Positions 1-18,416 of a DNA stretch of 18,416 nt are shown here, in pieces; the stretch's first letter is position 1, and the number at the start of each line of letters is the position of its first letter. The notes beneath the pieces are model-generated. The model worked only from the letters and a program-made list of their open reading frames with translations. It was not told where the DNA came from and made no database searches. Both the position numbers and the translations under genes were made by a program. The stretch lies in the UHGV virus genome UHGV-0317024; one strand, written 5' to 3'. The stretch comes from a virus.

Positions 1-1
1 A

Positions 2-1416: not shown

Positions 1417-1421
1417 ACATC

Positions 1422-1585: not shown

Positions 1586-1604
1586 GTGCTTTCCCCGCCT
1601 CGCC
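1586..1604. other. cos site, 19-nt cohesive end of P2 type
   Basis: Plus strand GTGCTTTCCCCGCCTCGCC is the exact reverse complement of the P2 cohesive end GGCGAGGCGGGGAAAGCAC as I recall it; it sits between Q and the replication side, as in P2. Confidence 0.8.
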
Positions 1605-1718
1605 CGCCCGCTTCATGGGGCGGTTTTAATGCAGTTGCATAGATACTATGGATCCGCACCAGTCCTGACCGCACGCAGCCTGAACGGACATCCCCGACGC
1701 ATGCAAAAACATTCACTT

Positions 1719-1730
1719 GTTGCATGCAAC
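1719..1730. promoter_or_regulatory. Perfect 12-bp palindrome GTTGCATGCAAC upstream of the first cargo gene; candidate operator
   Basis: Perfect dyad read from sequence; a further GCATGCA copy at 1700-1706; lies about 110 bp upstream of the 1843 start codon in an AT-rich leader. Confidence 0.25.
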
Positions 1731-1842
1731 GGCTTATTTAATGACAAATCAACTTAAATTTACAAAATCCACAGGTATGGATACTTTGCGAACATGATAG
1801 GCTTACGAGAATTATCGAGCCTATTTTTGACCGGAGCAATGT

Positions 1843-2784: not shown

Positions 2785-2799
2785 AACGACTAAAAATAC

Positions 2800-2825
2800 T
2801 CTCCAGTAACAATAAGTACTGGAGA
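2800..2825. terminator. Hairpin between convergent cargo genes; possible bidirectional terminator
   Basis: 9-bp perfect stem TCTCCAGTA(2800-2808)/TACTGGAGA(2817-2825) with 8-nt loop, between the stop of the 313-aa gene (2784) and the stop of the minus-strand 199-aa gene (2867). The flanking T-tracts are weak. Confidence 0.4.
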
Positions 2826-2866
2826 TGTATTATCACTAAAACCAATAAAAAATCACAACTAATGCT

Positions 2867-3466
2867 TTACTTAGATAGTTTGTCTTTAATTATATTCAGA
2901 ACACCAATTATTAATTCACTGATTGGCGTGGCCAACTCAATAGTATTAGATGTCGACTTTGTTCTAAAGTCTTTATCTGTCGGGTGTTGAAATGCTGATT
3001 TAAGAAGAGTCAAAAGCAAAGTTAAACCCACACCAAGGATGAATGCAACAATAGCTATTAGAGAACTGGCCGATAACCAATCGGTGGATAAACCAGAAAT
3101 AGATTTTCTAACTTTATTAGTGTCTGAAGATGGTGTTATCCTCTCATCAGCCATCTTCGGATCCGAAGATAAAGCAGAACATTTTTCTGCTGAAACACAA
3201 GTTTGTGTATCTACTTTTTGTGTTATCGCTGCGGCAATACTGCTTTTCGCTTCCAGCAAGCCATTTCCAACAGCCAAAGCAAAGTTAAGCCCCTGCCATA
3301 GAAATGTACAAGCAAAACAAAGCACAACGGCAGAGAGCACTAATCGCATACTTCTACGCTCTATACCATCCCGTCTATCTCGCCTTATAAGGATATCAGG
3401 ATCTAAATCGCCCTTAGGAGTGGTTCCTTGCTCTGGGGACTGTCCAGATAAATCAATATCAGCCAT
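2867..3466 (-). CDS. Predicted membrane protein with two transmembrane helices, 199 aa; function unknown
   Basis: Two hydrophobic segments (about residues 40-67 and 130-155) separated by a Ser/Thr-rich hydrophilic loop; charged N-terminal 39 residues. AT-rich. Lies downstream of and co-oriented with the ImmA-like gene. No strong SD at the first ATG. Confidence 0.55.
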   Translation of the reverse strand: MADIDLSGQSPEQGTTPKGDLDPDILIRRDRRDGIERRSMRLVLSAVVLCFACTFLWQGLNFALAVGNGLLEAKSSIAAAITQKVDTQTCVSAEKCSALSSDPKMADERITPSSDTNKVRKSISGLSTDWLSASSLIAIVAFILGVGLTLLLTLLKSAFQHPTDKDFRTKSTSNTIELATPISELIIGVLNIIKDKLSK

Positions 3467-3505
3467 AAAAAAATCACCCTTACATGTACAAACGTAAAGG
3501 TGATT
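3467..3505 (-). terminator. Hairpin plus U-tract immediately upstream of the 2-TM gene start; candidate attenuator or terminator
   Basis: On the minus strand an ~11-bp stem (one G-U pair) with a 12-nt loop is followed by seven U (plus-strand A-run 3467-3473), directly abutting the ATG at 3466. Confidence 0.45.
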
Positions 3506-3532
3506 TTAAACAGGTTAAAAGTTAAAGGCTAA

Positions 3533-4018
3533 TTAATAAGCCATTCCTAAGCTCTTTAAGCGCCAATGCATAGCGGCTTCTGATACATTAAAGATGCTTG
3601 CTAATCTCAAAGTGCTATCAATACCTTCTCTGGATACCAATTGACGTATAGCAGACTCAGGCATTAACAACTCAGCAGCAAACTTGTTTGCTTCAACCTC
3701 ACGGTAATCACGAGCACCTGTTGAATAATTCCCGACATTATCCCGATGGTACTCTCCGTCCTGGGTATGCCCCAGCACATGATGACCTAACTCGTGTGCA
3801 ACAGTAAAACGTTGACGATTAGAATGTTCACTAGAATCAAAATAAATCCTATGGACACCCTTTTTGATGACAGCCAGACCGCTTAACCCATCGTTGTTAT
3901 AAGCCGATTCCTCAAGTGCTTCAACACGAGCACCCCACGCTTTAGCAAGCTTAAACGGATCGACAGGTAGTCGGCGATCCCAATAGCGGTCAAGCAGTTT
4001 TTTAGCTGCATAGCTCAT
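3533..4018 (-). CDS. ImmA/IrrE-family zinc metallopeptidase-like protein (HEXXH), 161 aa
   Basis: HELGH motif at residues 75-79 (nt 3782-3796) in the context FTVAHELGHHVLGH, with downstream EVEANKFAAELLMPE typical of the ImmA/IrrE (DUF955) fold. Strong SD AGGAGG 5 nt upstream of the ATG. AT-rich cargo. Confidence 0.8.
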   Translation of the reverse strand: MSYAAKKLLDRYWDRRLPVDPFKLAKAWGARVEALEESAYNNDGLSGLAVIKKGVHRIYFDSSEHSNRQRFTVAHELGHHVLGHTQDGEYHRDNVGNYSTGARDYREVEANKFAAELLMPESAIRQLVSREGIDSTLRLASIFNVSEAAMHWRLKSLGMAY

Positions 4019-4660
4019 GGTTGCCTCCTACGTTAAAAAAGTTAAGTATGCACAGCCATATCACAGTTGTTATTTTATGTCAAGGCTGTTTTTCAGCCAT
4101 TACTATAACACTAATCCACGTTTTCCCATAACATTTTCGACATCATATATGCATTCAGTTCTGCATATAGAGCTTATCTTTGCTGATAACACGAGATGAA
4201 TACGCGCAACCAGCCCACGATTTATAAAAAACCTTATAAATCAGAATATTGAGTTAAAAAAACACTAACTACTTGCGCAGCGAGTTGTTAAACCTCAGCG
4301 ATACTAAAAGAAAATTTCAGAGTCACCGAAGTTTCCACAGAAAACGCAACTTAATGATTTTATTGGAATTTATGTCGCTATTTTTAATTACTTGTTTAAA
4401 TCCGCCATATTGAAACTGTGCATTTCTAGCCACTCACAACTTTAAAAAATTTACATTGCTTTCAAGACCTTATCATCCGTAGTCTCTGCTTTTTACTTTG
4501 AGCTATATCAAAAAAAGCTCAAACATCCTTGATGCAAAACCAGTATTACACAACATAAAATGCAACCAGAAACAACGACATACTATATGTTGTGTTGTTC
4601 AGGTCCTCTGTTCGGTGATATGCCAGATCACTTTGCGTTTAAACAGAGCATTATTTCAGG

Positions 4661-4674
4661 GCAAGACTTCGCTC
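4661..4674 (+). repeat. Direct repeat copy 1, GCAAGACTTCGCTC
   Basis: Exact 14-nt match to 4925-4938; each copy is followed within 3-25 nt by AGTCACTC. Confidence 0.6.
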
Positions 4675-4739
4675 AATAGTCACTCCGCCTTAGAAGCGCA
4701 TATATCGGCGGAAATTGCCCTCTGCTTACAGGAGGCGAT

Positions 4740-4853
4740 ATGAAGAAGTGCTATTACTGCATTCTCGTTCTGGCCCTCTTTGGCTATCCATATGGTAGTC
4801 CGAGTGGTTTGTCAGTAAACGTCAGTAATATCCATGTAAGTATTTTTCTTTAG
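4740..4853 (+). CDS. Candidate small hydrophobic peptide, 37 aa (MKKCYYCILVLALFGYPYGSPSGLSVNVSNIHVSIFL)
   Basis: Not in the supplied ORF track. Canonical SD AGGAGG (4730-4735) 4 nt before ATG 4740; stop TAG 4851-4853; followed 18 nt later by a terminator; hydrophobic Cys/Tyr-rich N-terminus. Confidence 0.3.
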   Translation: MKKCYYCILVLALFGYPYGSPSGLSVNVSNIHVSIFL

Positions 4854-4861
4854 TATGCTTC

Positions 4862-4895
4862 AAACAAAAAAACCACCTGCCAGGGTGGTTTTTTT
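4862..4895. terminator. Bidirectional rho-independent terminator
   Basis: Stem CCACCT(4873-4878)/GGGTGG(4883-4888, one G-U pair), flanked by A-run 4862-4872 and T-run 4889-4895. Can terminate the small plus-strand ORF and minus-strand transcription leaving gene A. Confidence 0.65.
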
Positions 4896-4924
4896 GCGCC
4901 CGTCATCAATCCGATGAAAGACTA

Positions 4925-4938
4925 GCAAGACTTCGCTC
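4925..4938 (+). repeat. Direct repeat copy 2, GCAAGACTTCGCTC
   Basis: Exact 14-nt match to 4661-4674. Confidence 0.6.
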
Positions 4939-5155
4939 GAGATGAATTATGCTTCGACATAAAGTCACTCGCAATGGTTTTATTAACCGAAATAGATGCT
5001 CTTTTATGACTCGAATCAAATAGCTGCCTTCAATTACATGCTAACGATTCAATACAATTTAGCCTTCTGATTCAACACGCTATTGCTCCTCATCTACCTT
5101 AGAGGTGTTTCGCATAATCCATTCAAAGACATATAAAATCACGCTGTATTTTTAC

Positions 5156-7432
5156 TCAAATGGGTAACAAAAATCCCGGCCAATCATCAGCGACCTGATA
5201 AGTGAAAGGTTTCCCGTCATAATTTACGGTCGCGCCACGCGCCAGCGCCTCAAGCTCCCATCGTTGCGGCCTGATACCGTTCTGAGCGAGATCAACGCGG
5301 ATACGGGTAATTTGCAATCGTTCCGACCGGGTCAGTCTGGCCGATGGTGCAATTTCATGCGGTTTTAACGGGCTTCCGTTTCTTTGCTGACGGTTTGGCG
5401 TTCTCCGGTCGTGTTTTAATGCGCCCCTGAGCGCCCTCACGACCTCCGGGTCATTCCATTCGATAACATCGTCATCAACCAGATTAAGCACTGCTGCGGC
5501 GTGCTCAGAAGGTGTGGGAGCCGGTAACGAAGTATCACCACCGGTGAGCTTTCCACAGTTATTGACAGGACTCCGAGGCGCGGCGATGCCGCTTTTTAAA
5601 GTCAAAGGCTGAACGACCGGAACTTTCGGCACAATGCGCCAGTCCGTCGTTCTGGTGATATGAATATGACGCGCGCCGAGATGCGGCGCGTAAATGCCGA
5701 CCACTCTCTCGACCTCTTCCTCGTACTCGTTAACGTCATCCGACAGACTACGGGCGACCCTGACAGTCTGACAATCGCGCGGGACATTTGCCCCACCCTG
5801 CGCGCTGATATACAGCGCAAAATCACCACTGTCTGCGGCGGCGCGTGCAGCCTCGACGCGCTCGTCAAACTCATCAGCAATGCTGACGCCGCGAGGCAAT
5901 TTGCGTAGTTCACGGTAAGCCCCCATTGTCGGCAGGCCAACCGTTTTAAATTGCGGAATGCGCCACGTTGACGCCCATGCGGTAACAGCCGCTGCAGTGT
6001 CTTTCAGCGGCCTGCCGGTGTCGTTATCGAGCTGACCATCCAGTGCATAGCCGTCGATGTTTTTTGAAATGTATTTCGCGATATATCCCGCAGCACCGCC
6101 CCGGTTAAGGTGTTTTGCCTGAAAACGGTTTCGCGCGGCTCCTCTTTCGTCGCCATCCTCTTTGAGCGCATAGCGACGCATGATTTCGATAATCTGGTTA
6201 CGCTGGCGTGGATGACAAAAAAGCATCATATGCCAGTGCGGCGTTCCGTCGTGGTGTGGCTCGACGACTCGCAAACCGTAGACCTGTAAATCATTATCCT
6301 TGAATGCCGTGCGCATCAGGCTCCAGATACGGCAGAGATAACGCTGCGCATCCTTTGGATTAAATGCCTCATCGTTCCAGCCGTGATTAAGCTGAACGGT
6401 TTTACTTTCGCCTTTTCCGACCTGACGTGTCGGGTGATACTTTGACGGCGCGGTCAGCGTGATAAACATCCCCACATCACCCTCTGCGGCGGCGTAACGC
6501 TCAATACCGGCAATGGTGTTCATCAGCTCCATCCGGCGAATTTCAGGATTAGAAATACTGCCCATCACCTTACTGATAAGGTCGATGCGCTCGCCGGTTT
6601 CCCTGTTTTCAAGGTCACACGATTTAAGAAATTCCAGATTTGCCTGGCGGCGCGCACGCACATCACGAATGGCGTGTTTACTGGCATAAGGAGAACGGTC
6701 TTTATTGACCTCCCCGACAGCTATCAGTAACGCCTCATGCCAGCGCATACGCTGGCCTTTAAGCTGATGAGTCCACCACTCATCGTTAAACAGGCGGGCA
6801 ATGGCAGAATATGCCTGCCTCGTGGTCATCTGTCCTTTACGGTATTTTTTCCAGTAGAGCGGGGAAATATTGAAAGCACGTGCAGCGCCAGCAACATGAC
6901 CATACAGGTGAGCCTGCGCCTCATCCGTAAACAGCGATTCTTTTTCACCATGCGCATCCACCCATGCATCGCAGAGTTCCTCATACATCATGAAAAGCTG
7001 CGATGAGATACGGGCGGCAAACTTTTTCAGCTCCTTGTCATTCATTCCCGGCAGGCGCGCATAGTGGTCACGCTCTGCCAGAAACAGCAACGACGCGTCG
7101 GTGTTCATTTCATGGCGCTGATTCACACGCTCAATGCGCGGCCATAAACGACGCTGAAAAGTAGATGTGAGGAAATAAAACCCGTGCACCGGGCTTTTAT
7201 TGCGCCGGATGTAGTCATAGCGTGAAGTAAACAGCGAGCGCAAAAAGTAAGGCAGGCGGTTAATCGTGGATAAAACACCTTGCACCTGACGCATCTCGTC
7301 ACGTGTAAGAGGTCTTTCGCGCCCGACAGCCTCGCGTGGCGCGTTCCATGCATAAGCACCGGTAAACGCCTTACCGGTGCCTGCGGTAAATGCTGACGGA
7401 GGGACAAAACGCCCGGAGGCTTTAACGGCCAT
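5156..7432 (-). CDS. A: Rolling-circle replication initiation endonuclease (gpA-like)
   Basis: The 772-aa ORF begins at a TTG at 7474; I place the start at the ATG at 7432 (MAVKASGRFVPP...), which matches the P2 gpA N-terminus as I recall it and gives 758 aa against 761 in P2. Position downstream of the early operon is as in P2. Confidence 0.85.
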   Translation of the reverse strand: MAVKASGRFVPPSAFTAGTGKAFTGAYAWNAPREAVGRERPLTRDEMRQVQGVLSTINRLPYFLRSLFTSRYDYIRRNKSPVHGFYFLTSTFQRRLWPRIERVNQRHEMNTDASLLFLAERDHYARLPGMNDKELKKFAARISSQLFMMYEELCDAWVDAHGEKESLFTDEAQAHLYGHVAGAARAFNISPLYWKKYRKGQMTTRQAYSAIARLFNDEWWTHQLKGQRMRWHEALLIAVGEVNKDRSPYASKHAIRDVRARRQANLEFLKSCDLENRETGERIDLISKVMGSISNPEIRRMELMNTIAGIERYAAAEGDVGMFITLTAPSKYHPTRQVGKGESKTVQLNHGWNDEAFNPKDAQRYLCRIWSLMRTAFKDNDLQVYGLRVVEPHHDGTPHWHMMLFCHPRQRNQIIEIMRRYALKEDGDERGAARNRFQAKHLNRGGAAGYIAKYISKNIDGYALDGQLDNDTGRPLKDTAAAVTAWASTWRIPQFKTVGLPTMGAYRELRKLPRGVSIADEFDERVEAARAAADSGDFALYISAQGGANVPRDCQTVRVARSLSDDVNEYEEEVERVVGIYAPHLGARHIHITRTTDWRIVPKVPVVQPLTLKSGIAAPRSPVNNCGKLTGGDTSLPAPTPSEHAAAVLNLVDDDVIEWNDPEVVRALRGALKHDRRTPNRQQRNGSPLKPHEIAPSARLTRSERLQITRIRVDLAQNGIRPQRWELEALARGATVNYDGKPFTYQVADDWPGFLLPI

Positions 7433-7697
7433 ATGAGCCAAAAGCCTCTGAACAACGCTTGCTGAGTTGCTCAACCTGCGCGTTTAAATCAGCAAAAGAT
7501 TTTGCGCTTCCGGTCAGAATATCGTGATGCATCAGGCCGGAAACGAGCTGGCCTAATTTCGGGTAATAACCAACCACCGCCAGCCATTCCTGACCGGCGT
7601 TTTTACCGCTTTCCGCTCTCTTTTTCTCGTGGAGAATAAACTGAAAGCTGTCACTGGTAACGACATAACGTTCGCCAATTTCAATACGAATACTCAT
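7422..7697 (-). CDS. Early-operon hypothetical protein, 91 aa (P2 orf83 position)
   Basis: ORF with stop overlapping the A start and start overlapping the upstream gene stop (ATGA coupling); synteny with the P2 early operon. Confidence 0.6.
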   Translation of the reverse strand: MSIRIEIGERYVVTSDSFQFILHEKKRAESGKNAGQEWLAVVGYYPKLGQLVSGLMHHDILTGSAKSFADLNAQVEQLSKRCSEAFGSYGR

Positions 7698-7921
7698 GCC
7701 GTTCTCCGGTAATGTTTGTTTTTTGCTTCAAAGACTGACTGACAGGAAACACAACGCGTGGCTGACGGATAAGCCGCACGACGGGCAGCAGGTATTGGCG
7801 CGTCACACTCTTCGCAAACCAGCGCAGAAACACCGCAATGTTTTACCCTTGCCGCGTTAATCTGGCGCTCCAGTAATTCAGCCTGTTGTTCCTGAATAAA
7901 ATCCACGTTGTCCGGCATCAC
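7694..7921 (-). CDS. TraR/DksA-family C4 zinc-finger protein, 75 aa (P2 orf82 position)
   Basis: CEEC-N17-CVSC four-cysteine motif typical of TraR/DksA zinc fingers; translationally coupled to its neighbours. Confidence 0.75.
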   Translation of the reverse strand: MMPDNVDFIQEQQAELLERQINAARVKHCGVSALVCEECDAPIPAARRAAYPSATRCVSCQSVFEAKNKHYRRTA

Positions 7922-8223
7922 CAGCTCCTTTTGTCGTTCAGCTTCTTAAATTCATCAGCGCAATAACTGGCGAGTTCTGTCGTTAATTTTGTCAGTTCAT
8001 CCACTGAGGAAATTTGCTTGTGGAATACAGCGCGTTTAACAAGTAAATTGACCACATCAGACAGGAGGTTTAATTCACTCTGATAAATTGCGATAACAGA
8101 TTCAGTTATTTCGCGCTTCTCTTTATCAATACCAAGTTGAATAAGAGACAAATCACCATTTTTCATAACGGCGATTTTTAAGGCGTTATTCAGTAATACA
8201 ACCGAACGAGAACAGGACATCAA
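7918..8223 (-). CDS. Early-operon hypothetical protein, 101 aa (P2 orf81 position)
   Basis: ORF in the coupled series; AT-richer than its neighbours. Confidence 0.55.
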
Positions 8224-8444
8224 AGCACCTCCCCGCGAGACAATCCGATATTGTGAAATTTTTCCGACTCCTGACTGAGCAGCTCAACTATCTCCACGCG
8301 GGATAACTCCGCCTTTGTGATGTGGCGAATCATGGCGTCAAGATGAGAAGAAAAGCGCGTCGCAGCGTCGGCCTGTGCTTCGGTTCTGGCCTGTTGCAGC
8401 AGTAATGCGTATTTACCGCACTGATTTTCAGAAACTGTATGCAT
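8220..8444 (-). CDS. Early-operon hypothetical protein, 74 aa (P2 orf80 position)
   Basis: ORF coupled to the downstream gene by ATGA overlap. Confidence 0.55.
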
Positions 8445-8507
8445 GACTTTCTCCAGGCAAAAAGAAGCCCCGCACGATTAAGTGCGTTAAAAACTCTGGT
8501 TAATTAT

Positions 8508-9014
8508 TTAATGCAGATATTGCTCTGGTTTTACCGACGTCAGAATTGTCGGTGCATACTCAAACAGACTGAATAATTCACGTAATGCACGGAATAAAGC
8601 ATCACGCCAGTAACATGATTCTTCATTAATTCGCCAGTACGGCTGATTGAATTCTTTTTCTGTCAATCCCGCATGCATAAATAAAGTACGACGCTGACTG
8701 ACTGTTAAAAAACTAATATATGCATACTCACTTGCGCCGACCTGACGGCGTTTTGAGAATGCGCCACGCAATTCATCAATTGCACAAACCAGTCGTTCAC
8801 GTTCGACGTCGTTCATTTCTTCAAAACGCATCGTTGCGTGACGCTGTTTTAACTGTGCATGAAAGCAAACCGTTAGCCGTTCGCGCTCCATCATCTGATT
8901 ATAATAATCACATGTATCCTGCCAGCGAGGGACGGCAAGATGCTTGCCAATTATCCGGCGCATAGCTGCTGGCTGTTTTTCAACGAGATTGAGCGTCATC
9001 ACTGTCATTTCCAT
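8508..9014 (-). CDS. B: Replication protein gpB-like (helicase-loading function in P2), 168 aa
   Basis: Size (P2 gpB is 166 aa) and position between cox and the small early ORFs. Confidence 0.65.
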   Translation of the reverse strand: MEMTVMTLNLVEKQPAAMRRIIGKHLAVPRWQDTCDYYNQMMERERLTVCFHAQLKQRHATMRFEEMNDVERERLVCAIDELRGAFSKRRQVGASEYAYISFLTVSQRRTLFMHAGLTEKEFNQPYWRINEESCYWRDALFRALRELFSLFEYAPTILTSVKPEQYLH

Positions 9015-9202
9015 ACCCTCCGGCTTTTCAGAAAGGTCAGAGCCTTTTTTAACGGACTCTGTTTTTTGGTGCGGATAATGATTCCCTTACGCCCCTTACC
9101 GTGGGTGATGGTGAAGTCAATCGCCCTGGGGCTTTCGTTACGCAATAACTGAGCAATACAACGCGGCTCATTCATAATCACAACCCCATCCACAAAAGCC
9201 AT
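9005..9202 (-). CDS. Small early-operon ORF, 65 aa (P2 orf78 position)
   Basis: ORF bridging the cox stop and the B start with short overlaps; no recognisable motif. Confidence 0.35.
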   Translation of the reverse strand: MAFVDGVVIMNEPRCIAQLLRNESPRAIDFTITHGKGRKGIIIRTKKQSPLKKALTFLKSRRVWK

Positions 9203-9465
9203 GCATCACGCTGTTCAACCGGTCGGTTATAAAACGCCTCACGTACAGCGCGATTAAACTCAGGAATGAAAACCCATTTTTCACCGGCACGAGCCTTCGG
9301 TTTGCAAGGATCACGCAATTCAATAATTGGTAATTTATTTGCCTTCACCATTTCACTGACGGCTGTCTTTGGCTTCCCTAATAAATCAGCAAATTTATCC
9401 ACATGAACCGCATCAAGCGGATACTGAATCACATAATTTTCAGCGTCCATATATGGTACCCTCAT
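9178..9465 (-). CDS. cox: Cox-like excisionase and early repressor
   Basis: About 90 aa, first gene of the leftward early operon, divergent from C; C-terminal region resembles the P2 Cox tail (W-L-x-W-x-G-L). The true start may be the internal ATG at 9450 (MDAENY...). Confidence 0.7.
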   Translation of the reverse strand: MRVPYMDAENYVIQYPLDAVHVDKFADLLGKPKTAVSEMVKANKLPIIELRDPCKPKARAGEKWVFIPEFNRAVREAFYNRPVEQRDAWLLWMGL

Positions 9466-9526
9466 AGGATCCAGCCCTTTCTAAACCACTCAAAACCGTT
9501 TAGATGCTGGTTTATTCTCAAATCAA

Positions 9527-9579
9527 TGGAACCTATATAGGTTCCAGTTTTGAGGGAATTTAGTCCCTATATAGGCACC
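9527..9579. promoter_or_regulatory. Immunity switch region (divergent early and repressor promoters) with two operator-like palindromes
   Basis: Perfect 20-bp palindrome TGGAACCTATATAGGTTCCA (9527-9546) and a second copy of the core CCTATATAGG (9566-9575), centres 34 bp apart, in the 121-bp gap between divergent cox and C. Confidence 0.55.
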
Positions 9580-9586
9580 ATGTCAA

Positions 9587-9880
9587 ATGAAATTAAGCGA
9601 AAAGATTAAGGCCTTGCGTGAGGCTGAAGGGCTAAGCCAATCAAAATTCTGTGAAATCATAGAGTTACCGCTAAGCACACTTAAAAAATATGAAGGAGGA
9701 AACTTTGAACCCGGTGGCACAGCTTTGCTAAAAATCACTATGCATCCCACATTCCAAAAATATGCTCTATGGCTTATGACAGATAAAACCGCGCCGGACG
9801 CAGGACAAATCGCACCGGCTCTCGCGCACATTGGGCCAGAGTCAACAGAGTCCAACCACTCCGCGAAAAGGATTGGCTAA
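9587..9880 (+). CDS. C: Immunity repressor C-like (HTH), 97 aa
   Basis: Small HTH protein divergent from cox; the motif GQIAPALAH matches the P2 C repressor C-terminal region as recalled; followed by int as in P2. Confidence 0.8.
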   Translation: MKLSEKIKALREAEGLSQSKFCEIIELPLSTLKKYEGGNFEPGGTALLKITMHPTFQKYALWLMTDKTAPDAGQIAPALAHIGPESTESNHSAKRIG

Positions 9881-9949
9881 CTCTATATAAAGATTACATT
9901 TTCACCATTTGCTACCAAGATGGTGAATACAGCGCCGGAGGGCTTTCTT

Positions 9950-10930
9950 ATGGCAATTAAGAAGCTCGATGATGGTCGCTATGAAGTGGACATTAGACCT
10001 CGCGGTCGCGACGGAAAACGCATCCGCAGGAAATTCGAAAGAAAAGCTGAAGCACTAGCATTTGAGCGATACACAATCGCCAATGCCAGTCAGAAAGAAT
10101 GGGGAGGCCAGCGAGCAGACCGCCGGACTTTGAGTGAGTTGCTGGACATCTGGTGGAAATATCACGGGCAAAACCACGAGCATGGAACAAAAGAGTTTAA
10201 TCATCTACTCAAAACCATCAGCGGCATAGGTGATATACCAGTGAGCAGGATGAGCAAAAGGGCTTTGATGGATTATCGTTCCATGCGACTACGTGATGGT
10301 ATCAGTGCCGCAACGATAAACCGTGACATGTACCGATTATCCGGCATGTTCACAAAATTAATTCAATTGGATGAATTTTCCGGGCAACACCCAATTCACG
10401 GACTGCCGCCACTGGCGGAGGCCAACCCTGAAATGACGTTCCTGGAAAAAGCAGAAATCGAAAAACTGTTAAATGTTTTGGCTGGTGATGACTTACTTGT
10501 CGCGCTTTTATGTCTGAGCACCGGAGGAAGATGGACGGAAGTTGCCACGCTAAAACCAGCACAGATTACAAATTGCAGGGTTACCTTCCTGAAAACCAAA
10601 AACGGTAAAAAGCGAACCGTGCCGATTTCTGAGGAACTGGAGAAAAAAGTTAAAGAGGAGGCCAGCGCCAAATTATTCAAAGTTGATTATGAGAAATTTT
10701 GCGGGATTTTACGCAGAGTGAAACCTGATATACCACCCAATCAGGCAACCCACATCCTGCGGCATACATTCGCAAGCCATTTCATGATGAATGGGGGCAA
10801 TATAATCGCACTGCAACAGATTCTGGGACATGCGAGCATTCAGCAGACGATGGCCTATGCGCACCTTGCGCCTGACTATCTGCAAAATGCCGTCGCTCTG
10901 AATCCACTAAAAGGCGGAGTGACGTTATAA
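9950..10930 (+). CDS. int: Tyrosine integrase
   Basis: Start placed at the internal ATG (MAIKKLDDGRYEV..., the P2 Int N-terminus) preceded by SD GGAGG. C-terminal catalytic region carries R...HxLRHT...Y (HILRHTFASHF, LGHASIQQTMAYAHL). Confidence 0.9.
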   Translation: MAIKKLDDGRYEVDIRPRGRDGKRIRRKFERKAEALAFERYTIANASQKEWGGQRADRRTLSELLDIWWKYHGQNHEHGTKEFNHLLKTISGIGDIPVSRMSKRALMDYRSMRLRDGISAATINRDMYRLSGMFTKLIQLDEFSGQHPIHGLPPLAEANPEMTFLEKAEIEKLLNVLAGDDLLVALLCLSTGGRWTEVATLKPAQITNCRVTFLKTKNGKKRTVPISEELEKKVKEEASAKLFKVDYEKFCGILRRVKPDIPPNQATHILRHTFASHFMMNGGNIIALQQILGHASIQQTMAYAHLAPDYLQNAVALNPLKGGVTL

Positions 10931-10945
10931 ATTTCCCCCTCTGAG

Positions 10946-10964
10946 TGTCCACATAGTGTCCACA
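10946..10964. repeat. Arm-type integrase binding repeats, left arm (TGTCCACA x2)
   Basis: TGTCCACAtagTGTCCACA; this is the reverse complement of the P2 Int arm-site consensus TGTGGACA as I recall it. Confidence 0.6.
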
Positions 10965-11141
10965 CTCAAGAAATTTTGAAACCGCTCCAAACCCTTACAG
11001 CTTTCGATAAGTACCTGTTTTTACTTTTGATTGCATGTAAGTAATTGATAAAAAAAACCCCCACATCATGTGGGGGAAGACAGGGATGGTGTCACAAAAA
11101 AGCACCTAACCTGATGATATAAATGGATTTATATCAAGCAC

Positions 11142-11160
11142 TGTCCACATAGCGTCCACA
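11142..11160. repeat. Arm-type integrase binding repeats, right arm (TGTCCACA x2)
   Basis: TGTCCACAtagcGTCCACA; near-identical to the 10946-10964 copy. Confidence 0.6.
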
Positions 11161-11175
11161 TCGACCATAAATAAA

Positions 11176-11200
11176 GCCCCTCAACTGAGGGGCTATTTTT
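11176..11200. terminator. Hairpin plus T-run downstream of ogr and int; likely bidirectional terminator
   Basis: Stem GCCCCTCA(11176-11183)/TGAGGGGC(11186-11193) followed by TATTTTT on the plus strand and TTTATTT on the minus strand. Confidence 0.5.
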
Positions 11201-11204
11201 GTGA

Positions 11205-11423
11205 TCACATCCACATAATTTGCTGCCCTGACGGCAACGGGTGCGGCCTTACGGCGTGGACTTCTCCCGGCTTCACGATGTATCGCTGTACCGACTCATA
11301 AGTGATGAACGTGGCGCTGCAATTCACGTTCTGACACTGGTGATAACGCTCTTTTGTCGTGTCAGTGATATAGCGGCTTGTACGCGCATGTGCGGCATGC
11401 TGGCATAAAGGACAATGAAACAT
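11205..11423 (-). CDS. ogr: Ogr zinc-finger late-gene activator, 72 aa
   Basis: Starting at the internal ATG gives MFHCPLCQHAAHARTSRYITDTTKERYHQCQNVNCSATFITYESVQRYIVKPGEVHAVRPHPLPSGQQIMWM, 72 aa, matching P2 Ogr as recalled, with the CxxC...CxxxxC zinc finger. Confidence 0.9.
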   Translation of the reverse strand: MFHCPLCQHAAHARTSRYITDTTKERYHQCQNVNCSATFITYESVQRYIVKPGEVHAVRPHPLPSGQQIMWM

Positions 11424-11504
11424 CGCGAGCACCTCTTCCGGTTTTGTTGATGGTGCCATTTTAGTTAATTTGTCCTTATAAAACAAACAGATAAAATAAA
11501 AACA

Positions 11505-12668
11505 TTACTCATCATCTTCTGTTTCGTACTCCACATCAGAAAGCCTGACCTCAAGCTCTAAGGACGTCGTGAAGCCGCGATTATTCAGAAAATGTGTCAC
11601 CTTAGTGATTGTCCAGTCCTGCTCGTCTATGACGCGCTTAAAACCTGACACTTTGACCGGCGTTTCCGTGTAAATATCTGCACGACCGGTAGCCAGGCTG
11701 ATGGAAAACTCCGCAACGCCCCGTTGCAGTTTATCCCACTTCGCCTGAGCGGCGCGCATGGCCTGCGCTTTCGTGGCATATACCGTGGTCAGGGCAAAAA
11801 CATTGTCAGCCTCACCGGCCATGTATTCACCTTCGCGCGCTTCCGGTACTTTTGGCGCTTTCTTCTGCGTGACCGGTTTCGCTTTCGGGTGCTCCAGTGC
11901 GCGCAGGTGTTTCTCTTTCTTTTTGCGTTTCAGTTTTACCTTCTGCTTTTGTGGCTTCGGGTCTTTGGTGTGTAACCACTTTGCCGTTACGCCGGTGTAG
12001 GCTCCACGGTCAGCAATCGCAAAATGATGACGGTCGCCGTCGCTGCGGGTGATGGTAATCTGCGGGATTTTTTTACCGCTGGCCGTCACCCCCTGCCCGG
12101 CTTTGAGAAACAACAGTTTTCCCATTTTTACCGACACCTCACCGCCGTTGCGTTCTGCTAGACGGGTCAGGAATTTCGCATCAGACTCCTGCGACTGATC
12201 GATGTGCGGGATTTTAATTCCGGCCAGTGACGGAGCGACACTGGCTTCCAGCCTGTTACGGGAGGCTATCGCCTCAACAATCGCACCGAGCGTGGTGTCA
12301 TGCCAGGAGCCTTCACGGCGGGAATTGAGCGTGCCACGAAAATCTGCACTCCGGGCCCGGATGGTGACCACATCCGGCGCGCCCCGGTGTTCTACCTCAT
12401 CAACGGTGAATTTCCCTTTGCATACCAGGGCAAAACCTTTCCAGCCGATATACACCGTCAGGACAGCGCCACGAACCGGCAGCCCGACCTGCCCGTCGGC
12501 ATCGTTCAGTTCAATATCAAGCTGGTCAGCCTCAAAGCCCCGGTTATCCGTCAGGGTCATGCTCATCAGACGGCCGCTGATATTGCCGGTAATATCCCTG
12601 CTGTCGAGCATCAGCATGTAATCCGGCGTCAGCGTACTGCCTGCATCAAATGTCAGTGCATCCAGCAT
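11505..12668 (-). CDS. D: Tail protein gpD-like, 387 aa
   Basis: Same length as P2 gpD and same position (last gene of the tail operon before ogr). Confidence 0.85.
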   Translation of the reverse strand: MLDALTFDAGSTLTPDYMLMLDSRDITGNISGRLMSMTLTDNRGFEADQLDIELNDADGQVGLPVRGAVLTVYIGWKGFALVCKGKFTVDEVEHRGAPDVVTIRARSADFRGTLNSRREGSWHDTTLGAIVEAIASRNRLEASVAPSLAGIKIPHIDQSQESDAKFLTRLAERNGGEVSVKMGKLLFLKAGQGVTASGKKIPQITITRSDGDRHHFAIADRGAYTGVTAKWLHTKDPKPQKQKVKLKRKKKEKHLRALEHPKAKPVTQKKAPKVPEAREGEYMAGEADNVFALTTVYATKAQAMRAAQAKWDKLQRGVAEFSISLATGRADIYTETPVKVSGFKRVIDEQDWTITKVTHFLNNRGFTTSLELEVRLSDVEYETEDDE

Positions 12669-13147
12669 TATCCCGCCCCCGTCATACCTGTGAATCTGGT
12701 CGCCAGACTGCCAGCCTTACCGATGAGCGATTCCGCCTGTTTACCGATATCACCATAAAGCGCGGCCAGTGATTCATCAACGCGGGTGAGTGACAGCGTA
12801 AAATCAATTTTCCGGGGTGTGCCGTCTGCAAAGAAAATACTCCCTGTTTCACTCACCCTGCTGATGACATACATACCGTAAATCATGCCAGTGCCATCCA
12901 GCAACGGCCACGCCCGGCCTTCCTCTGCCATCAGCCTGAGCGTGGTCATCGTCAGCTTGCCGCCGGTCAGTTCGGGATAAAGCACGCCGGCAAGCGTGAT
13001 GTTTTCCTCGCCAACACCGAGAAACTGGTAGGCATCCCGTTTACCGATACGGGAATTTGACGGCCAGCGATAATCTGATTCACGCTGCATGGTCTGGTGT
13101 GGCAGCGTCTGGCGCATAAAAACAAACATACCTAACGCGAGCATCAT
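12668..13147 (-). CDS. U: Tail protein gpU-like, 159 aa
   Basis: Same length as P2 gpU; its stop overlaps the D start. Confidence 0.85.
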   Translation of the reverse strand: MMLALGMFVFMRQTLPHQTMQRESDYRWPSNSRIGKRDAYQFLGVGEENITLAGVLYPELTGGKLTMTTLRLMAEEGRAWPLLDGTGMIYGMYVISRVSETGSIFFADGTPRKIDFTLSLTRVDESLAALYGDIGKQAESLIGKAGSLATRFTGMTGAG

Positions 13148-13161
13148 TTTTCGTCACCTCC

Positions 13162-15609
13162 TTAACCGTCATGCATCATGCTGGCACGGGCGCGCGCACG
13201 TTTATCCCGCTCGTATTTTTCGAGCGCATCCTGTAACTGGCGGTCAAGCTGTGTCCCCGGTGCAGTACCACCCGTCAGGCTGATGTGATATTCGTTTTTA
13301 CTCTGGTCCACATAAGAGCGGCCAGCCGGTGCCGTGACCGGCTGATAAGCCTGATAGCCTGCATAAGAGCTGGTCGCCGGAATATAACCACCGCTGCCAT
13401 ACGTGGCGGCTTGAGTTCTGGCGGCGGTCTGGTCAAGTGTGTCTGACTCTTTGTTGATAACACCGAGTTTTTCCAGTACCCAGTCAATACCGCTGCGCAG
13501 TTTGTTGAACGCATTAAGCGGCAGCATCAGCGCGTCAGCCAGTGCCTGCCCGAACATGACCCCCGTGTCACGGCAACGGTTCAGGGTATCCTGAGTGGCT
13601 TTGACCGGGGCAATCAGGTTTTTAAACCACTGCCACGCGGCCTGTAACTTTTCACCCAGCCAGTCAAACACCGGCTTAAGTGGCGTGAACAGTTCCCCCA
13701 CCGGCGCAAATGCCACTTTCAGCCCTTCAACCACACCGCCAAAGAATGCGCTGACAGGCTCCCAGTATTTACGGATAAGCAACGCCCCGGCGACAATTGC
13801 GGCCACCACGACCACAACCGGCCAGCTAATAGCCCCGATGGCGGTCATAACAGCACTGCCAACTGTCGTGAAGATTGCCCCCATTGCGCCTGCTGCCGCG
13901 ATAATGGCATTGATGCCGGTGATAACCGGCCAGGCTACAAGACCAATGGCACCGATGATGCCAGTAAGCGCCAGCGCGCCACCGACAATGAGGCCGATGG
14001 TTGACGCCAGTGATTTGTTTTTCTGGATCCAGCCGTCGAGTTTTAACACATACTTTGTGGCCGTCTGAGTGAGCTTACGCAGTGCGCCTTCCTGCTGGTC
14101 AAACAGGTCAGTCCCCACCGCCTCATAAGCGGACTGAAACTCCTTAAAGTCACCGCCGAGGTTGTCCTGCATGATATTTACCAGTTCTGCGGTCTTTCCG
14201 TCTGAGGCTTTAAACGCAGCGGTCAGTTTGTCCAGCTTTCCGGTTGAGGCGGCAGTCATCAGCACAGCGGCGGCTGAGCTGGCCTCCTCCCCGAAAATGG
14301 TTTTCATGTATTCGGCCTGCTGGGCAGTACCGAGCCGGTTTTTCTCAAAACTGGCCTGCATTTCTTTCAGAATGGTAAATACTGGTCGGGTGTTTCCCTT
14401 GCTGTCTGAGGTTTTCACGCCAAGCTCTTTGAGTGCATCCCATGCTTTTCCCGTTGGTGCCTGCAGGCGGCTTAACACGGCACGGCTTCCCGTCCCCGCC
14501 ATTGAGCCTGTGATTTTTGCATCATGCAGCGCCCCGACCATTGCGGCGGTTTCTTCAATGCTGACACCGGCATTTTTTGCCACAGGTGCGGCATAGGTCA
14601 GCGCATCGCTCATGCCGTCAAAATCGGCGGCAGTTTTGTTCATCGTCATGGAGAGAACATCCCCGATATGAGCGACCTTATCGTTTGAAAGCTGAAAGGC
14701 GGATTTCATCCCCATCAGCAGGGCGGCGTTTTCTTCCATCGTGCGGCGGTTCGCCAGCGCCATATTCAGCGTGACCGGCGTTGCCGCCTGAATGGCATCA
14801 ACATCCCCACCCGCTTTCGCGATGATTATCTGTGCACCGGCCGCATCATCCGCCGAGGCGGCGGTATTGTCGCCGAGCTGGCGCGCCTGCTTGCGTAGTG
14901 CAGCCATTTCGGCGGAGTCTTTTGCCACACCGAGCACAGCCTGCAATTCTGAGTTTTTCTGCGCAAACTCATAACCGGGCATCAGCAACTTAACTCCGGC
15001 CATCGTTCCCGCCGCCGCAATCCCCACACCGGCAGCGCCCACTGAGGCCATATTTCCGGCCAGTTCCTTTCCGGCCTGATAACGCTGTTTTACTGCGTTA
15101 AGTTTTGCCTGTTGTGCACTGACACGCGCCAGTGCGTCGCGCTGACGGTTAAGCTGTGCGGTGGTTTCACTGATACGGTTTTTCAGTCCCTGCTCATCAT
15201 GTGCAAGATTGCGGGTATTAATTCCCACAGCGGCCAGTTCCCGCTGCTGGCGTTTAACGGAATCCGTCAGGCGGTTATATTTCGCCTGTAAGTCCTCCGC
15301 CGCACGCTTTGCGGATTCCAGCACTTTCGCCTGAGCACGGGTCGGACGTTCGGTATTTTTAAACTGTGTGGCAAGGGCTTCGGCCTCCTGCCGAGCCTTT
15401 TCAAGTGCATGACCAGTCACGGCGAGCTGTGCACTGGTCTTGCGGAATCCCTCAATACGGGATGCCTGACCGTTCAGCTCGCGCAGTGATTTTTGTGTTT
15501 CCCGGATATCCCCCGACAGCGATTTGCTCGCTGTGCGGATGGATTTAAACGGGCGGGATGCCTGGTCAACAGCCCTGAGCAATACCTGTAATTTTACATT
15601 GTTACTCAT
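13162..15609 (-). CDS. T: Tail tape measure protein gpT-like, 815 aa
   Basis: 815 aa as in P2 gpT; N-terminal coiled-coil-like region, Ala/Gly-rich hydrophobic central segments and a long helical C-terminal part typical of tape measure proteins. Confidence 0.9.
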   Translation of the reverse strand: MSNNVKLQVLLRAVDQASRPFKSIRTASKSLSGDIRETQKSLRELNGQASRIEGFRKTSAQLAVTGHALEKARQEAEALATQFKNTERPTRAQAKVLESAKRAAEDLQAKYNRLTDSVKRQQRELAAVGINTRNLAHDEQGLKNRISETTAQLNRQRDALARVSAQQAKLNAVKQRYQAGKELAGNMASVGAAGVGIAAAGTMAGVKLLMPGYEFAQKNSELQAVLGVAKDSAEMAALRKQARQLGDNTAASADDAAGAQIIIAKAGGDVDAIQAATPVTLNMALANRRTMEENAALLMGMKSAFQLSNDKVAHIGDVLSMTMNKTAADFDGMSDALTYAAPVAKNAGVSIEETAAMVGALHDAKITGSMAGTGSRAVLSRLQAPTGKAWDALKELGVKTSDSKGNTRPVFTILKEMQASFEKNRLGTAQQAEYMKTIFGEEASSAAAVLMTAASTGKLDKLTAAFKASDGKTAELVNIMQDNLGGDFKEFQSAYEAVGTDLFDQQEGALRKLTQTATKYVLKLDGWIQKNKSLASTIGLIVGGALALTGIIGAIGLVAWPVITGINAIIAAAGAMGAIFTTVGSAVMTAIGAISWPVVVVVAAIVAGALLIRKYWEPVSAFFGGVVEGLKVAFAPVGELFTPLKPVFDWLGEKLQAAWQWFKNLIAPVKATQDTLNRCRDTGVMFGQALADALMLPLNAFNKLRSGIDWVLEKLGVINKESDTLDQTAARTQAATYGSGGYIPATSSYAGYQAYQPVTAPAGRSYVDQSKNEYHISLTGGTAPGTQLDRQLQDALEKYERDKRARARASMMHDG

Positions 15610-16029
15610 TCGTGTTTCCGCTTCGCCGGAGCGCCTTTTCGCGCCATGTGATGAGTTCGGTCAGGCTCATGGGATACAGTTCTGATGGCGGCCAGTGAAA
15701 TATCACTGCCACATCCGCCATCAGGTCATCGACCGACAGATTTTTCGGAAACGTCACTGCACCGAGTTCGGCGACAAAAAACCGACCACCTTACCGGCCA
15801 GCGCCACAAGGTCAGGCAGTTCCAGCGCGGCGACTTCCTGCTCGGTCAGCATCGGTGCCGTCATGCGCGGCAGCACCTTAATCAGTGCATCGACTTCAGA
15901 GTTCGCGACCTCTGCCAGACTGACACCGCGCAGCGTCCCGGCATTGGGTTTCATCAGCGTGACCTGTTCGATAACCTGCTCACCACGTTTGACCGGATTG
16001 TCCAGGGTAATGACATTTTCTTTGTTCAT
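15602..16029 (-). CDS. E': Tail assembly chaperone E+E', made by -1 programmed ribosomal frameshift at TTTTTTG (plus-strand 15775-15781)
   Basis: Hand translation of the -1 frame after the slippery site gives an open extension (...FVAELGAVTFPKNLSVDDLMADVAVIFHWPPSELYPMSLTELITWREKALRRSGNTNE) ending at TAA 15602-15604, overlapping the T start by 8 nt. This is the P2 E/E+E' arrangement. Confidence 0.75.
15754..16029 (-). CDS. E: Tail assembly chaperone gpE-like, 91 aa
   Basis: 91 aa as in P2 gpE; ends ...VGFLSPNSVQ with the slippery heptamer T-TTT-TTG eight codons before the stop. Confidence 0.85.
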   Translation of the reverse strand: MNKENVITLDNPVKRGEQVIEQVTLMKPNAGTLRGVSLAEVANSEVDALIKVLPRMTAPMLTEQEVAALELPDLVALAGKVVGFLSPNSVQ

Positions 16030-16085
16030 GGTTTTCTCACTTCTGAATCGGGGTTAACCGGTCAGCCTGGCTGACCGGATGAAAA

Positions 16086-16604
16086 TCACAGGCCGATATT
16101 GCGGCGGTGTTGCTCCAGCCGGTCGACGCCGTTCACCTTCTCAATCATGTTGATGGTGTCAATTTCGACCAGCTCCTTACCATCCATCGTCAGCCGGAAA
16201 TAGGTGCAGACCACGGAGATTTTCGACTCGGTGTCTTCTCCCTGTTTCCCCTCGCCGGTGTCGATTTCTTTCTGACGGCCACGCATGACCACCTCGACGG
16301 CCACCGTTTCGCCGGTATCGTCGCGCTGGTAAGAGCCGGCAAAACGAATCGGCACGGCATCCACACCGGTTGCGGCGTAAAGCTCCCAGATAACCGAATC
16401 CGGGAAGCCCCCGAGCGACCACTCCATTGACAGCGCATCGTCATCAAGGCCGAGGTCTACCGGTGCGCTGCCGTTCATCCCCGCACCGCGATAGTTTTCA
16501 AGCTTACGGGTCAGTTTTGGCAGCGTGACGGACTTTGCAACGCCCTGATAGCTGTAGCCGTTCAGAAAGACGTTCATTAACTTGAGTTTGCGCGGCATTG
16601 CCAT
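16086..16604 (-). CDS. FII: Tail tube protein gpFII-like, 172 aa
   Basis: Same length and position as P2 FII. Confidence 0.9.
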   Translation of the reverse strand: MAMPRKLKLMNVFLNGYSYQGVAKSVTLPKLTRKLENYRGAGMNGSAPVDLGLDDDALSMEWSLGGFPDSVIWELYAATGVDAVPIRFAGSYQRDDTGETVAVEVVMRGRQKEIDTGEGKQGEDTESKISVVCTYFRLTMDGKELVEIDTINMIEKVNGVDRLEQHRRNIGL

Positions 16605-16616
16605 CGGTCAGGCTCC

Positions 16617-17807
16617 TTAATTGCTGTTAACCGAGGTGACCAGATTTGCCAGGTATTTATCGGTAATACGCTGGCGCAGGGTCAGGTTTTCAAGAGGAGG
16701 CACCGGTGTATAGTCGTAGTCGATATACAGTTTTCCGGCCTTGAGGGTTTCCGCATCGTTGGATTCTTCGCTGAACCAGCAGGTCGCATCCACGATATAG
16801 CCGTTTGTTTTCAGCTCACGGAATTTGGCATTGATGCCGTCAACGATGTCGCGAATCAGCGTTGCAGTGATGGGCTTGTCCACCGCCCACATGTGCGCCT
16901 CAGCCATCGTGTCGGCCAGCACCTGCGCGGTGCGGGTGTAGTTTTCAAAGAGGAACAGCGGGTCATCAGAGCAGGTACGGTTACCCCAGAAGCGGAAACC
17001 GTCACGGCGAATCAGCGTTGTGACGCCTGACTCGTTAAGCAGGTCAGCATCAGTACCGGACTCCTGCAAATCCCAGAATACAGAGGCGCTGATGCCGGTA
17101 ACACCGTTCACCCCGACATTGGACAGCGTTTTATGCCAGCCCTGCTCCTGGTCGATTTTAGCGCGCAGCCCCAGCGCACGGGCGGTGGCATACGCGGTGG
17201 CGGTGGTACTGGTGACCGTATCCCATGCGAGGAAATTCGGCCAGATGACCATCAGCTCACGCTGGCTGAAATTCTGACGGTAGGCTTTCACCTCGGAAAT
17301 GGTTTTACAGCCCCATGCGCTGATATACCCGAAAGCGCGCAGCTTCTGACAGACTGATGCCAGTGCAACAGCCACCTCTTTGGTATCCAGTCCCGGCACG
17401 CCGAGAATACGCGGTTTAACACCAGTTACCGACTCCGCCGCCAGCAGGGCTTTCAGTCCGGTGTACTGACCGTTTTCGTCGGTGGTGCCGATGATATTGG
17501 AAACGGTCTGCGCGAGTTTCGTTTCTTCGTCATCGCCGGTGCCGTCTTCCACGCGCACGACAACGGTGACCGGTTTTGACTGGTCGGCGATGGCCTGCAA
17601 CGATGCCGCCAGCGTGCCTTTTTTACCGGCCTTTGCAATTGCGCTCTGCACATTGGTAATCAGCACAGGTTTATTGAGGGGGAAGGTTTCCGCATCCGCA
17701 TCGCTGGCCGTGCAGACCATGCCGACAATGGCCGTGGATACGGTGGAAATGACGCGGGTGCCGTCGTTAATCTCCAGCACCTGCACGCCGTGATGATAGT
17801 CACTCAT
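16617..17807 (-). CDS. FI: Contractile tail sheath protein gpFI-like, 396 aa
   Basis: Same length and position as P2 FI; SD GGAG upstream of the ATG. Confidence 0.9.
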   Translation of the reverse strand: MSDYHHGVQVLEINDGTRVISTVSTAIVGMVCTASDADAETFPLNKPVLITNVQSAIAKAGKKGTLAASLQAIADQSKPVTVVVRVEDGTGDDEETKLAQTVSNIIGTTDENGQYTGLKALLAAESVTGVKPRILGVPGLDTKEVAVALASVCQKLRAFGYISAWGCKTISEVKAYRQNFSQRELMVIWPNFLAWDTVTSTTATAYATARALGLRAKIDQEQGWHKTLSNVGVNGVTGISASVFWDLQESGTDADLLNESGVTTLIRRDGFRFWGNRTCSDDPLFLFENYTRTAQVLADTMAEAHMWAVDKPITATLIRDIVDGINAKFRELKTNGYIVDATCWFSEESNDAETLKAGKLYIDYDYTPVPPLENLTLRQRITDKYLANLVTSVNSN

Positions 17808-17866
17808 CCGTTTAACTCCGTGGTTAATGGGTGAGTGGTATTTTCAGTTGTGCCGGAGATGTCAGG

Positions 17867-18244
17867 CTATTTGTCCCGGTTGGCTAAGGGATGACACAAT
17901 TTATTCTTTGTCGCTGATGAGGGGAATTTTTTATAGAGCGTGGACAGGCCAATATCAAAAATCAGCGCCACGCGTTGACGTGATTCACCCGCAGCCAGCA
18001 ACCGTCCTGCCTGTTCCCACTCACTCGCGGTGAGCTTCGGACGTCTGCCACCAATACGACCTTTAGCTCTGGCCGCTTCCAGTCCGGCGCGAGTCCGCTC
18101 GACAATGAGTTCTCGTTCCATTTCAGCCAGGGCACCCATCACATGAAAGAAAAAACGTCCCATCGGCGTGCTGGTATCAATGGCATCCGTCAGGCTGCGA
18201 ACAACGTTTATGAAAATGCAGAGATAACGGGCAAGTGGCATCAT
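17867..18244 (-). pseudogene. N-terminally truncated serine DNA invertase (Gin/Hin/Pin family) remnant; catalytic domain start absent
   Basis: Residues from [36 protein letters not shown]... to the C-terminal HTH align with about residues 88-190 of Gin/Hin-type invertases. The first ~12 residues of the ORF have no invertase similarity and the N-terminal ~85 residues, including the catalytic Ser, are missing. Confidence 0.65.
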
Positions 18245-18271
18245 CTCCGGTTTTTATTCAGGGGGATGCTC

Positions 18272-18416
18272 ATGCTTATTGGCTATGTACGCGTATCAAC
18301 AAATGACCAGAACACGGAATTGCAGCGTAACGCGCTGGAGTGCGCGGGATGTGAGCGGATTTTTGAGGACAAAATCAGCGGCACGAAGTCCGACAGGCCG
18401 GGACTGAAAAAACTGC
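18272..18416 (+). CDS. Serine DNA invertase (Gin/Hin/Pin family), N-terminal part; 3' end lies outside the window
   Basis: Hand translation gives [48 protein letters not shown], the canonical invertase N-terminus with the catalytic serine in [16 protein letters not shown] 6 nt upstream. Not in the ORF track because no stop falls inside the window. Confidence 0.85.

Follow-up and report, generated by a model that had tools for sequence, protein, structure and literature searches.

The DNA invertase family acts at 26-bp sites (TTCTCCNAAACC NN GGTTT...) that flank a tail-fibre segment or a flagellin promoter segment, and hin, gin and cin are known to carry, in the 5′ part of the gene, a recombinational enhancer that depends on Fis. 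Gin (Mu G segment), Cin (P1 C segment) and Hin (Salmonella H segment) are small serine recombinases that combine a Resolvase with an HTH_7 domain. Cin reportedly also recombines a true site with a poorly related sequence, the quasi-cix site (cixQ), by exchange at the 2-bp centre, and the product is said to be stable because the hybrid sites are poor substrates. The closest described system to the cassette considered here is Pin of the e14 element of E. coli K-12 (Plasterk & van de Putte 1985); invertible tail-fibre loci are also described for the P2-like prophages of EPEC E2348/69 (Goldberg et al. 2014, PMC4272514). The same order of H, tail-fibre assembly genes, invertase and FI is found in pro483, in the P2 of strain T22 and in Salmonella phage MET_P1_103_31. 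The underlying system, a Pin/Gin-type tail-fibre inversion cassette in P2-like phages, is thus already known; the lesion reported below is unique, and its reality is uncertain.

The sequence analysed (hereafter the window) is the whole 18,416-nt stretch of virus genome UHGV-0317024, which is that of a common P2-like E. coli phage. Its minus strand carries FI, FII, E, T, U, D and ogr. Next come int, C, cox, B and A, and after A there is a variable locus, then the portal gene Q and the terminase gene P, the latter represented by its end. Gene ogr (11205-11486) lies directly beside int (9920-10930), with the attP junction in 10931-11204, and the cos region is continuous (1417-1842, from portal Q to the variable locus); the window therefore represents the phage in circular or excised form. 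In E. coli isolates this phage also occurs integrated between cpxP and fieF (L030, L002 and L028), with 99.97-100% identity across the regions that were compared. The variable locus (1843-5155, between portal Q and gpA) occupies the position of the P2 tin/old locus. It encodes a 313-aa and a 199-aa protein, both without Pfam or PADLOC match, and a 161-aa CapP-like M78 peptidase (PADLOC capP, E 1.1e-30), while the ~1.1 kb at 4019-5155 contains no ORF of at least 100 aa and no Rfam match. The 313-aa protein is very widespread (9378 blocks), and the locus may be a defence or regulatory cassette.

The tail sheath gene FI (16617..17807, minus strand, 396 aa) was located from the ORF list and the alignment with P2 FI; it has Phage_sheath Pfam domains, and the exact protein is recorded beside intact invertases. 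The alignment with P2 also confirmed an earlier note, made from the letters of the window, in placing the locus studied here directly upstream of FI, at the position of fun(Z) in P2. Two invertase pieces are found at this locus. The first is the invertase 3′ fragment (17867..18201, minus strand), delimited by Pfam and by comparison with relatives, which starts at the second base of codon 87, ends with the stop codon and contains the E-helix part of the catalytic domain and the HTH_7 DNA-binding domain. It forms most of a 125-aa minus-strand ORF (17867-18244, stop codon at 17867-17869) with Pfam matches to Resolvase (PF00239, positions 96-144, E 3.8e-15) and HTH_7 (PF02796, positions 1-44, E 5e-13) and a C-terminus ending in LANRDK. 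The catalytic serine region is absent. A Gin/Hin-type C-terminal piece without the catalytic N-terminus had thus been rightly recognised, but its size is residues 87-197, that is 111/197 (~56%), not two-thirds of the protein. The first 14 codons of the ORF (18202..18244, minus strand) are not invertase sequence, and invertase homology therefore begins at 18201; they are the leader of a silent tail-fibre C-terminal exon of relatives, which in L001 opens the CDS annotated as ‘phage tail protein’ (9892-10467), and are here fused in frame and supply the ATG.

The second piece is the invertase 5′ fragment (18272..18416, plus strand), which comprises codons 1-48 and is truncated by the end of the window before residue 87. 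It matches Resolvase (PF00239) at positions 2-55 (E 7e-14) and has the catalytic-serine motif YVRVSTNDQ, so that the N-terminal catalytic domain with its active-site serine is present, as a detached fragment only. Upstream of it lies the invertase promoter or leader region (18217..18271, plus strand), now directed away from FI and 100% identical to L003 98-152 in reverse orientation; a promoter scan found no match to the sigma-70 consensus in 18217..18271, and an Rfam scan of the window returned nothing relevant. The start codons of the minus and plus ORFs are separated by 27 bp. The earlier note had described an invertase start ~30 bp away on the other strand; the spacing and the catalytic N-terminus hold, but this is very probably not a second gene. 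A single continuous frame of ~185-200 aa joining both domains is absent from the window, the parts lying on opposite strands on either side of 18201/18202, while in relatives both domains are found in one continuous 197-aa gene. Where Gin, Cin and Hin are whole enzymes, the window has gene fragments only.

Comparison with relatives shows that, at the level of sequence, the minus and plus pieces are halves of one tail-fibre-switch invertase gene. In the relative L001 (NZ_CP098178) the intact invertase gene is at 9268-9861; window position 18201 corresponds to L001 9602, and window 18202-18416 corresponds, reverse-complemented, to L001 9931 to 9717. The minus piece (17867..18201) is 100% identical to L003 412-746 and L001 9268-9602, both within intact 197-aa genes, and the intact genes of L001-L004 match the plus ORF at 100% identity over codons 1-48. 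The ENA metagenome scaffold XUQI22-1_SAMN14445727_METAG-scaffold_1002 (31,570 bp) has 100.000% identity to window 1-18201 (its pieces L029 and L003 correspond to window 1-17432 and 10617-18201, 100.000% each), and it carries one intact 197-aa Pin-type invertase gene beside FI. Window 18202-18416 is 100% identical, reverse-complemented, to L003 83-297, which is the 5′ end of that gene with its upstream region, and L001, L002 and L004 show the same relation to the window pieces. Intact P2-like relatives have 97-100% nucleotide identity up to window 18201, an intact invertase and no 18201/18202 junction. Megablast of window 16600-18201 against 5426 complete E. coli genomes gave at least 80% coverage in 546, which are collinear with the window and have a single ‘recombinase family protein’ adjoining FI. 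The last 215 bp of the window match the same genomes up to 100%, on the opposite strand and 114 bp away, and the genomes that best match the 3′ piece are found among the 14 in which the 5′ piece is matched at 100%. The two pieces complement each other, one supplying codons 87-197 and the other codons 1-48 onward. Since both are 100% identical to parts of one intact gene, they belong to the same allele and to one gene.

The earlier note had offered two explanations: inversion of the 5′ part had split a single invertase gene, or the insertion of a new invertase-carrying module had truncated an older one. The 100% matches to one intact gene support the former, while the latter finds no support in two pieces of the same allele. 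A version of it in which the minus piece is an old remnant and the plus ORF a complete gene, from a new module or from a real inverted duplication, could draw on the truncated invertase remnants that are common beside FI in P2-like prophages (a 98-aa form, 134 blocks), on the other decay forms known (P0121, P0122 and P0132) and on the window ending before residue 87 of the plus ORF. We nevertheless consider two genes very improbable. Alleles of the invertase gene otherwise differ by 2-14%, the minus piece begins in codon 87, where the flipped segment deduced from the junction ends, and the deletions behind the common remnants have another breakpoint, at which codon 71/72 meets what is left of a tail-fibre-assembly gene; the packaging size of P2 would probably also be strained by a second invertase cassette.

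The cassette to which the gene belongs can be seen whole in the relatives. In intact relatives the invertase flips a tail-fibre segment of ~1.8 kb between two 26-bp crossover sites. The near site, immediately upstream of the invertase gene, is in L001 at 9917-9942 (TTTTCATAAACG TT GGTTTGGGAGAA, centre TT at 9929-9930) and the far site at 11753-11778, inside gene H, with 1806 bp between the two; together they form the inverted-repeat pair I1, found as TTTTCATAAACG TT GGTTTGGGAGAAGG and the far site. Between the sites L001, L002 and L004 carry alternative tail-fibre C-terminal exons together with assembly genes. The window shows one half-site and the centre only (18203..18216; centre AA at 18203-18204 and the 12-nt half-site CGTTTATGAAAA at 18205-18216), the partner half-site GGTTTGGGAGAA being absent from its normal place and the remainder of the cassette lying past the window end. 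The earlier proposals of a tail-fibre host-range inversion system and of 26-bp crossover sites therefore apply to the relatives, with their cassette and inverted pair of sites; in the window the switch is broken as written, and only a half-site is visible.

The likeness to e14 extends to the sites and to the gene. The published e14 P-segment repeat TTGGTTTGGGAGAAGG is identical to the right half of the near crossover site (PMC12529663), and the K-12-derived strain DH5alpha (H82) has 97.7% identity to the 215-bp 5′ piece of the window, the matched copy being presumably e14 pinE. The e14 P segment and the relatives have a like layout, with the invertase beside a segment of ~1.8 kb that holds two tail-fibre exons and two assembly genes. 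Unlike that of e14, the present cassette lies in a P2-like phage upstream of FI, and here the invertase gene and the near site are split by the inverted junction, so that the cassette cannot work as e14 Pin does.

The rearrangement junction lies at 18201..18202 (...GCTGCGAA/CAACGTTTATG..., in longer context ...GTCAGGCTGCGAA/CAACGTTTATGAAAATGCAGAG...), where L001 9602 is joined to the reverse complement of L001 9931; the wild-type sequence at the same position is ...GCTGCGAA/AATTAATG..., and the bases shared at the joint number 0. At this left junction the comparison shows a single gene whose 5′ part is inverted, and it places both breakpoints. The simplest reading would be a 329-bp inversion of L001 9603-9931, for which the reciprocal junction is predicted to be ...GCGGCATTAATT/GTTTGGGAGAAGG.... 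If the inversion was simple, the flipped piece comprises codons 1-86 with one base of codon 87, the first, then 30 bp of intergenic DNA and 40 nt from the beginning of the silent tail-fibre exon ORF, and it reaches over the left half of the near crossover site to 1 nt past the site centre.

The two breakpoints differ in their relation to the crossover sites. The right one (L001 9931/9932) is 1 nt from the centre TT of the near site; the chance that a random breakpoint within ±1 kb falls this near a site centre is estimated at about 0.5%. The left one (L001 9602/9603), in codon 87, has no resemblance to a crossover site. With a weight matrix built from four half-sites the true sites score 28.6 and 29.8 bits, while all registers at the left breakpoint give -10 to -23 bits, values within the 20th-90th percentile of background; a quasi-site at the left breakpoint was ruled out on these background-level scores. 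Nor is the joint the canonical product of exchange at a 2-bp centre in any register: the departure consists, according to the register, of one additional C, an additional CAA or a C in place of A. An AA-centred exchange at the left breakpoint (AA at 9601-9604) was checked by hand in three registers, none of which yields the observed joint. Exchange by homology or microhomology, or a template switch guided by it, was rejected with no bases shared at the joint; an inverted match of 7/10 between AAAATTAATG and CATAAACGTT exists but is 3 nt out of register. PhaseFinder-style in-silico flipping between inverted repeats was likewise discarded, no repeat flanking the flipped segment. A 17-nt inverted repeat, I3 (16/17), is found at L001 9515-9531 and 10002-10018, the first arm at window 18114-18130 and the second past the window end, the arms being LAEMER codons of the invertase and GWLKCNG codons of the tail-fibre exon. 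Its symmetry axis is within 0.5 nt of that of the flipped 329-bp piece, and ENA scaffold_1002 ends exactly at I3. Further complementarity on this axis was sought and none was found (z 0.4-1.5), for which reason the coincidence of the axes (estimated at about 2%) was treated as chance and a role of I3 in the rearrangement set aside.

Secondary crossover has been reported for a related enzyme: Cin is said to use secondary sites with little homology, work associated with the names Iida & Hiestand-Nauer 1986-87 and Rozsa et al. 1995. Compared with the Cin quasi-sites, the present joint is 1 nt off at best and its partner is without site similarity. Full-text literature searches on secondary crossover sites returned nothing relevant.

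A reciprocal inversion would preserve the reading frame at both of its junctions. The predicted reciprocal fusion joins invertase residues 1-86 to the tail-fibre exon and would be 264 aa (L001-type) or 183 aa (L002-type). Frame preservation on both sides, one end at a crossover site and the ability of host Pin-family enzymes to act in trans on such sites (PMC12529663) could suggest a programmed, reversible self-inversion, in which the invertase turns its own expression on and off by flipping the 5′ third of the gene. Such a switch appears extremely improbable, as the left end has no inverted repeat or site-like sequence, the joint is non-canonical, an in-frame outcome is expected 1 in 3 by chance, and the inverted state is absent from the 546 E. 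coli genomes with the arrangement and from all collections searched. We also give very little credence to a ‘suicide’ inversion in which the enzyme recombines its crossover site with an unrelated position of its own coding sequence and so permanently fixes the choice of tail fibre, the boldest form of which would be a reversible self-switch operated in trans by host Pin-family enzymes.

Neither the junction nor its products recurred in any search. The junction 27-mer and the predicted reciprocal junction 25-mer each gave 0 exact matches in IMG/VR, JGI metagenomes and GTDB genomes; the joint is spanned by 0/5426 complete E. coli genomes (546 of which have the normal arrangement) and by no phage record searched. 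The fusion ORF (125/124 aa) has no record in the exact-protein indexes of ENA, JGI, NCBI and Logan assemblies, with three possible starts tried, and among 5.8 billion proteins or clusters no full-length homologue of either fusion protein was found, the best matches having 76% coverage without a Resolvase domain or being ordinary invertases. Look-ups with FI, the 313-aa protein and gpA likewise yielded no sequence that continues the window past 18416. The two orientations thus did not recur in independent genomes or samples, as a programmed switch would.

Decay of the invertase gene beside FI takes several other forms, and the breakpoints of all of them differ from 18201/18202. The 98-aa remnant, widespread in P2-like prophages (134 blocks; L007-L015, around 9940-10297), results from a deletion that joins invertase codon 71/72 to a remnant of the tail-fibre-assembly gene and leaves a fixed tail fibre. 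It is the same gene at the same position upstream of FI, with 98.8% identity over the shared part, but it has lost the 5′ part, which the window keeps, inverted and 70 bp away. BLAST alignments with these remnants end at 18201, and a shared breakpoint was considered; the remnants extend 46 nt further and represent a different deletion. P0121 and P0132 have in-frame internal deletions between short repeated motifs (RPG..GRS and LGR..GRF), and P0122 is a holin-invertase fusion from a large deletion.

Three inverted or duplicated arrangements were seen around the invertible segment in other assemblies. In IMG/VR sequences L037 (1-1205 versus 2914-4118) and L086 (167-1078 versus 2919-3830), 99.9% identical inverted duplications of 0.9-1.2 kb, comprising the invertase and the start of FI, lie on both sides of the ~1.7-1.8-kb invertible segment; they are probably mis-assemblies that chain the junctions of both orientation states, and could be real palindromic rearrangements. 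In the NCBI scaffold L016 (8880-10060) a full invertase and an FI fragment are followed by N runs and then a truncated invertase and FI, which looks like a scaffolding problem at the locus.

The junction in the window may itself be non-biological, with the invertase of the phage intact: it could come from a chimeric library molecule made by inverted template switching, from a short contig placed in the wrong orientation or from a contig end that folds back; we think this somewhat unlikely, yet it has to be weighed seriously. The scaffold that is 100% identical over 18,201 bp keeps an intact gene, the junction and its products are missing from every collection searched, and the joint is blunt, non-canonical and at a non-site. 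Just 215 bp, about one read length, lie beyond it. The region already confuses assemblers through the real tail-fibre inversion: in this phage family the crossover site is a frequent contig end (L003, L043, L065 and L076), and L037 and L086 have the false-looking inverted duplications described above. Against this, a breakpoint 1 nt from the site centre would be met in a random chimera at the same estimated rate of about 0.5%, and the joints of the L037 type are at true crossover sites with the whole segment kept, unlike 18201/18202. No k-mer is common to both sides of the joint, so a de Bruijn graph alone could not have created it; without k-mer overlap or microhomology the joint must have been in the reads, where single chimeric reads are normally pruned. 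Beyond the joint the window continues for 215 bp; a further 114 bp would be needed to tell an inversion from a fold-back.

The reading we prefer is a real, one-off aberrant inversion linked to the invertase, and we regard it as about evenly poised between true and false. In this phage copy a 329-bp piece holding invertase codons 1-86, the upstream region and the left half of the near site would have been inverted, either by a misfire of the phage’s own invertase or after its break at the crossover site was rejoined inside its own gene. The position of the right breakpoint near the site centre, unlikely for a random chimera, argues for a real event; the non-site partner, the non-canonical joint, the intact twin scaffold and the uniqueness of the junction argue against it. 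That the inversion was simple and reciprocal, that it exists in real DNA and that the invertase was its cause we infer from these comparisons.

Expression of FI was considered through the P2 late promoter pF, whose features in the P2 record were mapped through the alignment to 17831..17904 (minus strand). By homology with P2 the transcription start falls at 17831-17833 and the Ogr activator binding site at 17876-17904, with the outer parts of the Ogr site (TTGTG ... TTAGCCAACCGGGACAA) conserved. The predicted Ogr site overlaps the last ~12 invertase codons (17867-17904; LANRDK-stop). The overlap of the remnant with the FI late promoter, suspected in the earlier note, is therefore real by the P2 alignment and is the normal arrangement in all relatives with an intact invertase; overlap of coding sequence and promoter element is common to all phages with the invertase-FI arrangement. 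As mapped, the predicted pF promoter is unaffected by the rearrangement.

Neither reading, real or artefact, makes this a new system. If the junction is an artefact, it is a warning that false inverted joints are possible in contigs around invertible tail-fibre segments, and that ‘two facing invertase genes’ need comparison with close relatives before interpretation. If it is real, parting the catalytic N-terminus from the E-helix and the DNA-binding domain would leave no active invertase, and with the halves of the near site 329 bp apart a host Pin-family enzyme acting in trans should not flip the segment either; with the invertase lost and the near site split, the host range of the phage would be locked. 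A real junction would be of some interest for studies of serine recombinase fidelity and for the engineering of Gin-type recombinases, opening no long-standing question. It would be a natural case of a DNA invertase whose gene and crossover site were both destroyed by one event of its own making, the host-range switch of this phage would be frozen, and invertases could be taken to hit non-sites in the wild.
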